This document shows positions 2,213-11,609 of a stretch of 11,609 bases of DNA, piece by piece. A program made the position numbers and the translations under genes. Each line of letters starts with the position of its first letter. The stretch's first letter is position 1. The DNA lies in the IMG/VR virus record IMGVR_UViG_2537561686_000004; one strand, 5' to 3'. Under the pieces are notes generated by a model. It made no database searches, had not been told where the DNA came from, and saw only the letters and a program-made list of their open reading frames with translations. This stretch comes from a virus (Duplodnaviria > Heunggongvirae > Uroviricota > Caudoviricetes).

Positions 2213-2947
2213 ATGCCTGTACCAAATCCTGTAATGCCGGTGAAAGGTGCCGGGACCACCCTGTGGGTTTATAAGGGGAAGCGGTGACCCTTATGCGAAT
2301 CCGCTTTCAGACGTTGACTGGTCGCGTCTGGCTAAAGTTAAAGACCTGACGCCCGGCGAACTGACCGCTGAGTCCTATGACGACAGCTATCTCGATGATG
2401 AAGATGCAGACTGGACTGCGACCGGGCAGGGGCAGAAATCTGCCGGAGATACCAGCTTCACGCTGGCGTGGATGCCCGGAGAGCAGGGGCAGCAGGCGCT
2501 GCTGGCGTGGTTTAATGAAGGCGATACCCGTGCCTATAAAATCCGCTTCCCGAACGGCACGGTCGATGTGTTCCGTGGCTGGGTCAGCAGTATCGGTAAG
2601 GCGGTGACGGCGAAGGAAGTGATCACCCGACGGTGAAGTCACCAAGTGGGCGTCCGTCATGGCAGAAGATCGCAGTACGGTACGCGGCAACCGGTATGAC
2701 TGTGACGCCTGCCAGCTCCTCGGTGGTGAAAGGGCAGAGCACCACGCTGACCGTGGCATTCCAGCCGGAGGGTGCAACTGACAAGAGCTTCCGTGCGGTG
2801 TCAGCGGATAAAACAAAAGCCACCGTGTCGGTCAGTGGTATGACCATCACCGTGAAAGGTGTTGCTGCAGGCAAGGTCAACATTCCGGTTGTATCCGGTA
2901 ATGGTGAACTTGCTGTGGTTGCAGAAATCACCGTCACCGACAGTTAA
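2213..2947 (+). pseudogene. V: major tail tube protein V (lambda gpV family), reading frame disrupted by small indels
   Basis: ATG at 2213 (GAGGA at 2204-2208) gives [22 protein letters not shown], then an apparent +1 insertion near 2276-2281 produces a TGA at 2285-2287. V sequence resumes in another frame ([36 protein letters not shown]...[20 protein letters not shown], to about 2630), then shifts again after a cluster of roughly seven 1-bp deletions at about 2625-2690, where MAEDRSTV is readable only in an alternate frame. The C-terminal Ig-like portion ([28 protein letters not shown]...[10 protein letters not shown]) ends at TAA 2945-2947. Confidence 0.8.
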
Positions 2948-2962
2948 TCCGGAGAGTCAGCG

Positions 2963-3385
2963 ATGTTCCTGAAAACCGAATCATTTGAATATAACGGTGT
3001 GAGCGTCACGCTTTCTGAACTGTCAGCCCTGCAGCGAATTGAGCATCTCGCCCTGCTGAAACGACAGGCAGAACAGGCGGGATCCAGTCTCAATCGACAG
3101 GTGAGCGTGGAAGATCTCGTCAGAACCGGTGCTTTTCTGGTGGCGATGTCCCTGTGGCATAGCCATCCGCAGAAGACAAAGATGCCGTCCATGAATGAAG
3201 CCGTTAAACAAATTGAGCAGGAAGTGCTTACCACCTGGCCCACAGAGGCAATTGCTCAGGCTGAAAATGTGGTAATGCGTCTGTCCGGTATGTCTGAGTT
3301 TGTTGTGAATGATGCACCTGAACAGGCAGATGACGCCGGGCCAGCAGAGCCTGTTTCTGCGGGAAAGTGTTCGACGGTGAGCTGA
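2963..3385 (+). CDS. G: tail assembly chaperone G (lambda gpG family)
   Basis: ATG at 2963 preceded by GGAGAG; 140 codons, the same length as lambda G. Translation MFLKTESFEYNGVSVTLSELSALQRIEHLALLKRQAEQ...PAEPVSAGKCSTVS. Contains the GGGAAAG slippery heptamer near its 3-prime end. Confidence 0.9.
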   Translation: MFLKTESFEYNGVSVTLSELSALQRIEHLALLKRQAEQAGSSLNRQVSVEDLVRTGAFLVAMSLWHSHPQKTKMPSMNEAVKQIEQEVLTTWPTEAIAQAENVVMRLSGMSEFVVNDAPEQADDAGPAEPVSAGKCSTVS

Positions 3386-8657: not shown

Positions 8658-8689
8658 AAACCGCCTCCGGGCGGTTTTGTCGTTTATGG
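8658..8689 (+). terminator. terminator-like stem-loop between I and J
   Basis: Inverted repeat AAACCGCC (8658-8665) / GGCGGTTT (8670-8677) around a TCCG loop, followed by TGTCGTTTATGG, just upstream of the J ribosome-binding site and start. Confidence 0.3.
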
Positions 8690-8699
8690 AGCATGACGA

Positions 8700-11609
8700 A
8701 TGGGTAAAGGCAGCAGTAAGGGGCATACCCCGCGCGAAGCAAAGGACAACCTGAAGTCCACGCAGTTGCTGAGTGTGATCGATGCCATCAGCGAAGGGCC
8801 GGTTGAAGGTCCGGTGGATGGATTAAAAAGCGTGCTGCTGAACAGTACACCGGTGCTGGACAGTGAGGGGAATACTAACATCTCTGGTGTCACGGTGGTG
8901 TTCCGGGCAGGTGAGCAGGAACAGACACCGCCGGAGGGATTTGAATCATCAGGTTCCGAGACGGTACTGGGTACGGAAGTGAAATACGACACGCCGATTA
9001 CCCGGACCATCACGTCGGCAAACATCGACCGTCTGCGCTTTACCTTCGGTGTGCAGGCACTGGTGGAAACCACCTCAAAGGGGGACGGAATCCGTCGGAA
9101 GTCGCCTGCTGGTTCAGATACACGTAAGGTGGCTGGGTGACGGAAAAAGACATCACCATTAAGGGCAAAACCACTCCAGTATCTGGCCTCGGTGGTGGTG
9201 GATAACCTGCCGCCGCGCCCGTTTAATATCCGGATGCGCAGATGACGCCGGACAGCACCACAGACCAGCTGCAGAACAAAACGCTCTGGTCGTCATACAC
9301 CGAAATATCGATGTGAAACAGTGCTACCCGAACACGGCACTGGTCGGCGTGCAGGTGGACTCGGAGCAGTTCGGCAGCCAGCAGGTGAGCCGTAATTATC
9401 ATCTGCGCGGGCGTATTCTGCAGGTGCCGTCGAACTATAACCCGCAGACGCGGCAATACAGCGGTATCTGGGACGGAACGTTTAAGCCGCATACAGCAAC
9501 AACGGCCTGGTGTCTGTGGGATATGCTGACCCATCCGCGCTACGGCATGGGGAAACGTCTTGGTGCGGGATGTGGATAAATGGGCGCTGTATTATCGGCC
9601 AGTACTGCGACCAGTCGTGCCGGACGGTTTGGCGGCACGGAGCCGCGCATCACCTGTAATGCCTCTGACCACCAGCGTAAGGCGTGGGATGTGCTCAGTG
9701 ATTTCTGCTCGCGATGCGCTGTATGCCGGTATGGAACGGGCAGACGCTGACGTTCGTGCAGGACCGACCTCGATAAGGTGTGGACCTATAACCGCAGTAA
9801 TGTGGTGATGCCGGATGATGGGCGCCGTTCCGCTACAGCTTCAGCGCCCTGAAGGACCGCCATAATGCCGTTGAGGTGAACTGGATTGACCCGAAAACGG
9901 CTGGGAGACGGCGACAGAGCTTGTGAGAACGCAGGCCATTGCCCGTTACGGTCGTAACGTCACGAAGATGGATGCCTTTGGCTGTACCAGCCGGGGGCAG
10001 GCACACCGCGCCGGGCTGTGGCTGATTAAAACGGAACTGCTGGAAACGCAGACCGTGGACTTCAGCGTGGGTGCGAAGGGCTTCGCCATGTACCGGGCGA
10101 TGTCATTGAAATCTGCGATGATGACTATGCCGGTATCAGCACCGGCGGGCGCGTGCTGGCGGTGAACAGCCAGACCCGGACGCTGACGCTCGACCGTGAA
10201 ATCACGCTGCCATCTCCGGACCACGCTGATAAGCCTGGTTGACGGAGGGATCCGGTCAGCGTGGAGGTTCAGTCCGTCACCGACGGCGTGAAGGTGAAAG
10301 TGAGCCGTGTTCCTGACGGCGTTGCTGAATACAGCGTTGGGGGCTGAAGCTGCCGACGTGCGCCAGCGCCTGTTCCGCTGCGTGAGTATCCGTGAGAACG
10401 AGACGGCACGTATGCCATCACCGCCGTGCAGCATGTACCGGAAAAAGAGCCATCGTGGATAACGGGGCGCACTTTGACGGCGACCAGAGCGGCACGGTGA
10501 ATGGTGTCACGCCGCCGCGTGCAGCACTGACGCCGAAGTCACCGCAGACAGCGGGGATATCAGGTCTGGCCGCTGGGAACGCCGAAGGTGGTGAAGGGCG
10601 TGAGTTATGCTTCGCCTGACCGTGGCAGCGGATGACGGCAGTGAGCGGCTGGTCAGCACGGCCCGGACGACGGAAACCACTTACCGCTTCACACAACTGG
10701 CGCTGGGGAACTACAGGCTGACAGTCCGGGCAGTAAATGCGTGGGGGCAGCAGGGCGATCCGGCGTCGGTATCGTTCCGGATTGCCGCACCGGCAGCGCC
10801 GTCGCAGATTGAGCTGACACCGGGGTATTTTCAGATAACCGCCACGCCGCATCTTGCGGTTTATGATCCGACGGTACAGTTTGAGTTCTGGTTCTCGGAA
10901 AAGCGGATTGCGGATATCAGGCAGGTTGAAACCACAGCCCGCTACCTTGGCACGGGGCTGTACTGGATAGCCGCCAGTATCAATATCAAACCGGGCCATG
11001 ATTATTACTTTTATATCCGCAGTGTGAACACCGTTGGCAAATCGGCATTCGTGGAGGCCGTCGGTCGGGCGAGCGATGATGCGGAAGGTTACCTGGATTT
11101 TTTCAAAGGCAAGATAACCGAATCCCATCTCGGCAAGGAGCTGCTGGAAAAAGTCGAGCTGACGGAGGATAACGCCAGCAGACTGGAGGAGTTTTCGAAA
11201 GAGTGGAAGGACGCCAACGATAAGTGGAATGCCATGTGGGCTGTCAAAATTGAGCAGACCAAAGACGGCAAACATTATGTCGCGGGTATTGGCCTCAGCA
11301 TGGAGGACACGGAAGAAGGCAAGCTGAGCCAGTTCCTGGTTGCCGCTAACCGTATCGCGTTTATTGATCCGTCTAATGGCAACACAAGACCAATGTTTGT
11401 TGGTCAGGGCGATCAGATATTCATGAACGACGTGTTCCTGAAACGCCTGACGGCTCCGACCATTACCAGCGGCGGTAATCCTCCGGCATTTTCCCTGACA
11501 CCGGACGGGCGGCTGACGGCGAAAAATGCCGATATCAGCGGTAACGTGAATGCGAACTCCGGGACGCTCAACAACGTCACGATTAACGAGAACTGTCGGG
11601 TTCTGGGAA
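8700..11609 (+). pseudogene. J: central tail fibre / host specificity protein J (lambda gpJ family), 3-prime end beyond window; frame disrupted many times between about 9105 and 10605
   Basis: ATG at 8700 (GGAG at 8686-8689) gives MGKGSSKGHTPREAKDNLKSTQLLSVIDAISEGPVEGPVDGLKSVLLNSTPVLDSEGNTNISGVTVVF...VETTSKGD, matching the lambda J N-terminus; this frame is lost at about 9105 (stop at 9140). J-like peptides then appear in alternating frames: KQCYPNTALVGVQVDSEQFGSQQVSRNYHLRGRILQVPSNYNPQTRQYSGIWDGTFKP...WCLWDMLTHPRYGMGKRLGA (9313-9570), DVDKWALY (about 9570-9595), QAIARYGRNVTKMDAFGCTSRGQAHRAGLWLIKTELLETQTVDFSVGA (about 9930-10075), SVEVQSVTDGVKVKVSRVPDGVAEYS, and AIVDNGAHFDGDQSGTVNGVTPP (about 10455-10520). 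From 10604 to the window end one frame is intact. Confidence 0.8.
10604..11609 (+). CDS. J: intact C-terminal-proximal segment of J (frame continuous to window edge; not an independent gene)
   Basis: Frame 2 is open for 335 codons with no stop. Translation (M)[98 protein letters not shown]...[49 protein letters not shown]...[28 protein letters not shown] resembles the fibronectin-III-like and distal regions of lambda J. Confidence 0.75.

Follow-up and report, generated by a model that had tools for sequence, protein, structure and literature searches.

The contig and its tail genes

The window, meaning the whole 11,609-nt stretch of DNA analysed here, is by exact identity the entire 11,609-bp contig AQBZ01000022.1 of the E. 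coli p0305293.4 draft genome GCA_000358675.2, the strain name being taken from the protein records. The isolate p0305293.4 is an ETEC from a multi-colony collection, and for this collection as a whole Illumina HiSeq 2000 sequencing, Celera Assembler and a coverage of >200x are reported. The gene order from E to J is the same as in the prophages of ETEC TW10722, 504237 and ETEC-2265 and in the phages phiSTEC1575-Stx2k and lambda h434, intact lambda-like relatives with 95–97% identity, including gaps, across the whole window. All these relatives have unbroken copies of V, L, K, I and J, the genes that are broken in the window. The gene coordinates were projected from L004, the intact E. coli TW10722 prophage. 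The letters A and B refer to the closed ETEC genome 504237, which carries prophage A, with all genes intact, and a second prophage B sharing L–J.

1..11609, + strand: lambda-like head-tail module in the order E' FI FII Z U V G T H M L K I J', as in annotated relatives
2213..2947, + strand: tail tube gene V, with a frame disrupted through +1 at 2275 plus seven 1-nt deletions at 2629–2683
2272..2276, + strand: V insertion, +1 at 2275, window GGGGAAG
2629..2683, + strand: V patch, 7 single-base deletions, every one at codon position 3
3794..6373, + strand: tape measure gene H, frame intact
6370..6699, + strand: gene M, intact
6699..7348, + strand: tail tip gene L, 36 deletion lesions (48 nt) at 6859–7280
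7354..8095, + strand: tail tip assembly gene K, 1-nt deletions after 7359 and 7738
7800..8560, + strand: segment of mostly B-type consensus, lesion-free
8059..8639, + strand: tail assembly gene I, 1-nt deletion at about 8570 leading to a premature stop at 8628
8700..11609, + strand: tip attachment gene J, truncated by the contig end, 44 deletion lesions (49 nt) at 9085–10604

A preliminary description of this DNA reported frame-breaking indels clustered beside intact genes. The alignment to the intact TW10722 prophage confirms that this pattern is real, and the clustering is far beyond chance. Lesions were found in each of the patches proposed at 2276–2281, 2625–2690, 6850–7350, 7735–7757 and 8560–8580, and the stretches taken as undisturbed (1–2275, 2700–6850, 7760–8560 and 10604–11609) are without frame disruption. 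The patch in J, placed at 9105–10605, starts slightly earlier, at 9085; the gene is lesion-free from 10605 onward. The patch at 7420–7430, proposed as uncertain, has to be withdrawn: it holds no lesion, the K lesion lies at 7359/7360, and 7422 only marks where the shifted frame has its first start codon.

Aligned globally with the TW10722 prophage, the window shows 235 substitutions, 97 deletion events (114 nt) and 11 insertions. The pair 3079/3089 in G, the cluster 8321–8463 and base 7347 were subtracted as natural allele states, their reading as lesions having been rejected. The G pair is a natural state, with the exact G protein present on at least 1000 contigs; the cluster vanishes against a B-type allele and thus reflects only allelic divergence; and the 'deletion' at 7347 is the natural B-type L–K spacer. 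What remains after this subtraction is a set of about 90 deletion lesions, 107 nt in total, and a single +1 insertion. They are confined to V, L, K, I and J, and the frames are kept in FI–U, G, T, H and M. In the tally of 91 events made before 7347 was reclassified, 78 events have a size of 1 nt, 12 of 2 nt and one of 6 nt. The preliminary view of mostly single-base deletions with few substitutions in the patches also holds, as the region 6801–7400 contains 38 deletions versus 4 substitutions. Programmed frameshifting was rejected for everything except the normal G/T site.

The genes can be repaired with small changes. When 108 nt are restored and 1 nt is removed, V, L, K, I and J become open, without a nonsense codon. 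The net length change of V is −6, so that its 3′ part is back in frame, and the deposited annotation splits this gene into two fragments. Such fragment 'proteins' are present in public databases, e.g., ENG74391.1 (V, 129 aa) and ENG74402.1 (J, 146 aa). One fragment protein, shared with E. coli 6-319-05_S1_C2, has an identical counterpart in an unrelated assembly (KEM15748.1).

Lesions at sites of allele difference

The lesions coincide with differences between natural alleles. Of the 114 deleted nucleotides, 78 are at positions that vary within a panel of only 8 other alleles; the background is 11% (Fisher 1e-46). When the panel is taken together with the sibling assemblies and prophage B of 504237, 73 of the 91 events fall exactly on a polymorphic site (11.5% in the control), and 87 of 91 lie at most 1 nt from one (32% in the control). 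Codon position 3 takes 66 of 84 single-base deletions (79%), and substitutions are skewed likewise (152 of 233). The two sites in K are likewise SNPs, 7359 being C/G, in the third codon of the gene, and 7738 T/C.

The L patch illustrates such a relation. Its edit distance from the window is 53 to allele A and 52 to the B allele of strain C6, and the distance to allele A becomes 13 once the A/B-discordant columns are deleted. In 504237 this patch has 47 A/B difference sites, 35 of which are deleted in the window. Several candidate partner alleles were rejected on the way: phiSTEC1575-Stx2k, lambda h434 and the L5_E1779 prophage accounted for the V patch only and not for L or J, and with the alleles L005–L007, all three having an L of about 92% identity, only about half of the L lesions were explained. 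A hybrid query, in which allele A carried a panel alternative wherever a base is deleted, brought up better partners for L and also the J partner, namely the prophage co-resident in the ETEC relatives. The J patch is explained only in part: 20 of 49 deleted nucleotides lie at A/B differences of the 504237 prophage B, and about half of the deletions are without a match to a known alternative allele.

The frames of the deposited sequence are truly broken, and E. coli often carries defective lambdoid prophages. Both points speak for a genuine cryptic (defective) prophage, in which V, L, K, I and J would be real pseudogenes with many small deletions. Real defective prophages are marked by large deletions, IS insertions and scattered point mutations, reproducible between isolates. 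In the broken genes of the window, however, the lesions come with hardly any substitutions and without a single nonsense codon, large deletion or IS element. Moreover, decay would have to restrict about 90 deletions to synonymous inter-allele SNP positions and leave a contig equidistant from two natural alleles. The Rac, DLP12, Qin and O157 Sp prophages resemble the present case in that several related prophages occur per chromosome, with a lambda-like tail module and tail genes seemingly interrupted. The window differs from them by dropouts at SNP sites, which vary among assemblies of one clone. A cryptic prophage is thus an extremely unlikely source of the broken frames.

Single-base indels are also the usual signature of consensus errors in 454, Ion and nanopore data. 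Ordinary platform errors unrelated to repeats, such as homopolymer miscalls, low coverage or unpolished long reads, could in principle generate indels of this size. Against this stands the Illumina sequencing at >200x reported by the study of the collection. No homopolymer enrichment was found either: 63% of the single-base deletions have a run length of 1, and only 6% lie in runs of at least 3, against a background of 15%. Such errors would also not be expected to spare 2.6 kb of H and all of FI–U, nor to follow the A/B divergence block by block, and they are hardly conceivable as the cause.

Sibling colonies and co-resident prophages

The window contig can be compared with four sibling colonies from the same patient, each assembled separately and each with the same prophage. 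The isolates.8,.6,.10 and.5 share with the window a Z protein that is found on just these five contigs, and by elimination their subject is inferred to belong to the 10 of 12 subjects described as clonal. The lesion type is found in every sibling assembly examined. Each of the five isolates has its own lesion set, and 105 of 113 deleted sites are not common to all covering contigs. The number of events in the L patch is 37 in the window (7347 included), 9 in.8, 2 in.5 and 0 in.6. Sibling.6 is the only one with lesions in FI, in G and in the 3′ part of V, and.5 the only sibling with lesions in H and K. Heritable lesions would be identical in clonal isolates, which is not what the siblings show, and the uneven counts in L argue further against pseudogenes of a cryptic prophage.

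Six of the seven deletions in the V patch recur in all five sibling assemblies, which by itself could suggest real deletions. Yet the edges of the patch are longer or shorter among the siblings, and the sites are those of allele SNPs: six of the seven separate lambda h434 V from the TW10722 allele, and all seven are polymorphic in the allele panel. The +1 insertion of V is informative in another way. At 2272–2276, siblings.10 and.5 read GGGAAG and lambda h434 reads GGGGAG, and the window and sibling.8 both have the union of the two, GGGGAAG. From these strings, the +1 at 2275 reads as both alternative bases of one SNP retained. Elsewhere, a gap in one sibling's assembly corresponds to two alternative bases among the others.

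The siblings further differ at 245 substitution sites in the tail module, and each of these sites has just two alternative states. Lambdoid prophages are well known to recombine with each other, and this alternation could reflect a truly heterogeneous template, e.g., if co-resident prophages were still undergoing gene conversion within colonies or from one colony to another. The arbitrary choice of alleles in a collapsed consensus, however, predicts the same alternation, and here it is accompanied by gap dropouts, for which a biological origin is impossible. With a heterogeneous template, too, the indels would remain consensus artefacts, and such a template is very unlikely to be what lies behind them. 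There is a slim chance that the 245-site mosaic partly records real gene conversion between prophage tail modules during one human infection, with the indels being artefacts all the same.

A second copy of the tail genes is available in closed genomes. In E. coli genomes, the median is 3 matching places per genome. The closed ETEC relatives that match the A type best also carry a prophage whose J and L are the best of the B type, and the L–J module of the second prophage in closed relatives is 92–97% identical. On the evidence of the sibling alleles and these relatives, the genome of the isolate would contain two or more near-identical copies of the tail region. Relative to 504237 A, 103 of the 112 window substitutions are B's base.

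The divergence of the two copies sets the limits of the lesions. Lesions are present in blocks with 2–21 A/B differences per 100 bp and absent at 19–35 (M and the J 3′ end). In M, the A and B prophages differ at 19–35 sites per 100 bp, i.e., these copies are too divergent for co-assembly, and the lesions begin directly after the M block, exactly where the A/B divergence of 504237 drops from about 30% to below 10%. H has no dropout because the H of the second prophage is unrelated at the DNA level. The exact H protein is unique to the window contig, and the gene is probably SNP-chimeric with a third allele.

Origin of the frame breaks

By sequence comparison, the lesions fall on inter-allele differences and are irreproducible between assemblies of one clone, in frames that are otherwise intact. 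The frame-breaking indels are therefore very probably a collapsed-repeat consensus artefact of the draft assembly. The preliminary description had already preferred consensus errors from repeated tail genes over prophage decay, and the inter-allele SNPs, the sibling differences and the second prophage of closed relatives all bear it out. Its proposed mechanism stands as regards the ambiguity caused by repeated tail genes. Long-read polishing is not the problem here, Illumina and Celera Assembler being reported for the collection. The errors are indeed patchy, as it held, and within the patches they are not random and correspond to discordant columns.

In the proposed mechanism, the ETEC clone P0305293 would carry at least two lambdoid prophages whose tail genes are 90–99% identical in stretches, with L, K, I and J similar to one partner prophage and V, G, FI and H to another. 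An overlap-layout-consensus assembler would pile the short reads of different copies into one multi-alignment, in which agreeing columns give a correct consensus. At discordant columns three outcomes are observed. First, one allele wins, which produces a chimeric mosaic. Second, both bases are lost and nothing is emitted, which leaves a deletion of 1–2 nt. The third outcome, in which both bases are kept, occurred once, at 2275. Copies that have diverged too far for an overlap (M, most of H and the J 3′ end) would leave a single contributor and hence clean sequence. As for the exact algorithmic step, a mismatch was probably spread over two staggered gap columns, each called as a gap.

This proposal resembles the published signature of collapsed repeats, in which the reads of near-identical copies are merged and the copy differences become correlated discordant columns. 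In the window, likewise, the lesions sit exactly at the discordant columns, and a short repeat contig standing by itself is what the assembly contains. The difference is that the published signature consists of SNPs in the reads, whereas in the window the discordance appears in the consensus, as dropouts and one doubled base that lead to frameshifts. A literature search retrieved no description of base dropout in the consensus for Celera Assembler on Illumina data.

The window contig, as a consensus of at least two prophages, is chimeric at the substitution level too, and even its 'intact' genes are unreliable base by base. The tail genes of the ETEC clone itself are almost certainly intact. 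Single-base gaps at third-codon inter-allele SNP sites, without accompanying substitutions, provide a read-free diagnostic for collapsed repeats. Biologically, the finding adds nothing new, and its relevance is that of a data-quality warning: prophage, pseudogene and pan-genome analyses based on such drafts count too many defective prophages and unique proteins.

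Contig of origin and inventory of lesions

The window is identical in sequence to the complete contig AQBZ01000022.1 (11,609 bp; assembly GCA_000358675.2), whose protein records give E. coli p0305293.4 as the strain. P0305293.1 is listed from Bangladesh, 2011, cholera-like illness, with sequencing at GSCID. In the multi-colony ETEC study from this hospital, Illumina HiSeq 2000 paired-end reads were assembled with the Celera Assembler at >200x coverage, and we infer that p0305293.4 was part of it. The open reading frames describe a lambda-like head-tail module with several tail genes in fragments. 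By megablast, it matches lambdoid phages at 95–97% identity including gaps, and likewise prophages that are spread over thousands of E. coli genomes, with a median of 3 matching places per E. coli genome. Among references without any broken gene, the prophage of ETEC TW10722 (L004) is the best; its annotation shows no interruption in E, FI, FII, Z, U, V, G, T, H, M, L, K, I or J. A prophage nearly identical to that of the window is present in a closed ETEC genome (L003, NZ_LR883006.1 2381248–2393558); its annotation has H frameshifted, L with an internal stop and K frameshifted.

The global alignment of the window to L004 contains 235 substitutions, 97 deletion events (114 nt) and 11 insertion events. 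Three sets of these indels were rejected as lesions and represent natural alleles: the +1/−1 pair at 3079/3089 (the exact protein of this G allele is found on at least 1000 contigs), the cluster at 8321–8463 (gone when the window is aligned to a B-type allele, the type of a second prophage) and the 'missing' base at 7347 (the normal L–K spacer in B-type prophages and siblings). After their removal, the lesions number about 90 deletions, plus a single insertion.

Frame-breaking lesions (window coordinates)
V: +1 at 2275; 7 deletions at 2629–2683
L: 36 deletions at 6859–7280
K: 7359 and 7738
I: 8570
J: 44 deletions at 9085–10604

These positions match the patches of the preliminary description, except that 7420–7430, which it had marked as uncertain, holds no lesion, as the true K lesion lies in codon 3, at 7359, and that the J patch starts from 9085. 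The stretches it called undisturbed are so in the alignment. It also saw mostly deletions with few substitutions, in agreement with the 38 deletions vs 4 substitutions in window 6801–7400; substitutions are nearly lacking inside the patches.

Sibling assemblies

In an exact-protein look-up across the whole collection, only 5 contigs encode the Z protein of the window. Besides the window itself, these are four contigs of adjacent WGS projects, assigned by unique fragment proteins to isolates p0305293.8,.6,.10 and.5. According to the multi-colony study, the population was clonal in 10 of its 12 subjects. Provided that P0305293 is among the 12, it is a clonal subject, since it is neither of the two mixed ones (P0299917 and P0299438).

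L-patch deletion events and own-only lesions of the five assemblies
.4 (window): 37 events; own-only, most of the L patch
.8: 9 events; own-only, none noted
.6: 0 events within the contig's reach; own-only, FI, the 3′ part of V, and G
.10: contig stops early in the L patch; own-only, one in FII
.5: 2 events; own-only, H and K

The lesions differ between assemblies and are not reproducible: 113 sites are missing from one assembly or more, and at 105 of them some other assembly that covers the site keeps the base. Where one sibling has gaps, the remaining siblings divide between two alternative bases. An example is reference 3163–3215, where.4 and.8 read A,T,C,T,A,C,.10 and.5 read T,C,T,C,G,T, and.6 has six gaps; the same pattern occurs at reference 3362–3425 (G) and 4795–4828 (H). 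Such a pattern cannot arise from heritable pseudogene lesions, and the differing lesions of the siblings contradict genuine decay into a cryptic prophage.

Across reference 1–8834, 245 sites have at least two alternative bases among the five clonal contigs (L011–L014 and the window). Every assembly picked its own allele mosaic, which implies that at least a third lambda-like prophage supplied FI, V, G and H alleles. Inter-prophage gene conversion among the colonies could conceivably be a real heterogeneity behind the substitution mosaic, but the indels would still not be real. The G fragment of sibling.6 (L012 8045–8284; 79 aa, truncated by the artefact) is identical to KEM15748.1 of an unrelated strain, E. 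coli 6-319-05_S1_C2, which suggests that this dropout also happens elsewhere, in further assemblies.

Allele differences and co-resident prophages

The J patch, with panel alternatives put at the deleted sites, best matched closed ETEC genomes, the very ones with the best A-type match, but at a second locus. A clear case of a tail-tip module common to co-resident prophages is strain 504237. No gene is broken in its prophage A (L016), and its prophage B (L015, NZ_CP025862.1 1619490–1643120) combines an HK97-like head, including a ClpP-like protease/capsid fusion, and an unrelated tape measure gene with a homologous L-K-I-J block that shares 92–97% identity with the genome's lambda-like prophage.

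Window compared with prophages A and B of strain 504237
M, 6676–7075 (A coordinates): A/B differ 19–35 per 100 bp; window is A at all differences but one, no gaps
L patch: 47 A/B differences; window 35 deleted, 3 B, 8 A
K-I: A/B differences in blocks; window follows B or A blockwise, no gaps
J patch: 57 A/B differences; window 20 deleted, 18 B, 18 A
Beyond ~11,100 (A coordinates): A/B differ 2–32 per 100 bp; window in clean A or B blocks

Lesions are confined to stretches in which the copies are alike enough to overlap, and gaps set in at the exact point where A and B first become similar. Relative to A, the window carries B's base in 103 of 112 substitutions; the right half of the contig is thus pieced together from two prophages, and the gaps are the places where neither allele won.

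The lesions also lie at differences between copies. In a panel of 8 other alleles, 78 of the 114 deleted nucleotides are polymorphic, vs 11% of the background (Fisher 1e-46). When the panel also includes the sibling contigs and a co-resident prophage, 73 of 91 events fall exactly on a polymorphic site and 87 within 1 nt, vs 11.5% and 32% of control sites. In V, 6 of 7 deleted sites are differences between lambda h434 V and the TW10722 allele. The L patch is equidistant from allele A (53 edits) and a B allele of strain C6 (52), but only 13 from A with the A/B-discordant columns removed; the three-way alignment displays repeated gaps at A/B mismatches. The single insertion obeys the same rule: at 2275 the alleles read GGGAAG and GGGGAG and the window GGGGAAG, so both alternative bases were retained.

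Among the 78 single-base deletions no homopolymer bias was found: 49 are at run length 1 and 5 in runs of ≥3, vs a 15% background. Generic platform error is contradicted by this, by the reported Illumina chemistry and by lesions that track A/B similarity block by block. Codon position 3 is hit by 66 of 84 single-base deletions, and substitutions between alleles are equally skewed (152 of 233). This bias, together with that to SNP sites, again opposes decay.

Proposed mechanism, repaired genes and implications

The lesions correspond to repeat collapse as characterised by Phillippy et al. (2008), in which the discordant columns are correlated. In the step from discordant column to gap, which we infer, a mismatch may plausibly be set out as two staggered base/gap columns; a deletion would result if both were called gap, and a lone +1 if both were called bases.

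Repair, in which 108 bases were put back and one extra base was taken out, gave open frames of 257 (V), 237 (L), 254 (K), 222 (I) and 987 codons (J, to the contig end), with no nonsense codon in any of the five. The underlying genes look intact, and this lack of any other inactivating change likewise contradicts decay. The exact H protein (3794–6373; WP_001668162.1) is on record for the window contig alone. Clonal siblings also have an 859-aa H, split in.5, and the frame-intact H is probably an allele mosaic too, since siblings differ at two-state sites in it. The window has a single GGGAAAG heptamer, at 3361–3367, at the end of G (G 2963–3385, overlapping T 3367–3801). In lambda, the −1 programmed frameshift that yields gpG and gpGT lies at this position; the G/T frame change is genuine and separate from the artefact.

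The preliminary description preferred consensus errors in patches, caused by repeated tail genes, and this reading is borne out and sharpened by the siblings, the SNP sites and the A/B model. Frameshift fragments (window 2247–2636, 8700–9140 and others) were annotated and deposited as proteins, e.g., ENG74391.1 (129 aa, 'major tail protein V') and ENG74402.1 (146 aa, 'putative host specificity protein J'), and each of them occurs on a single contig. The frame-breaking indels are no biological feature. Their value is as a warning that the contig and its deposited fragment proteins are chimeric consensus sequences, as many contigs of the same project probably are, and the lesion pattern offers a recognisable signature for such errors.
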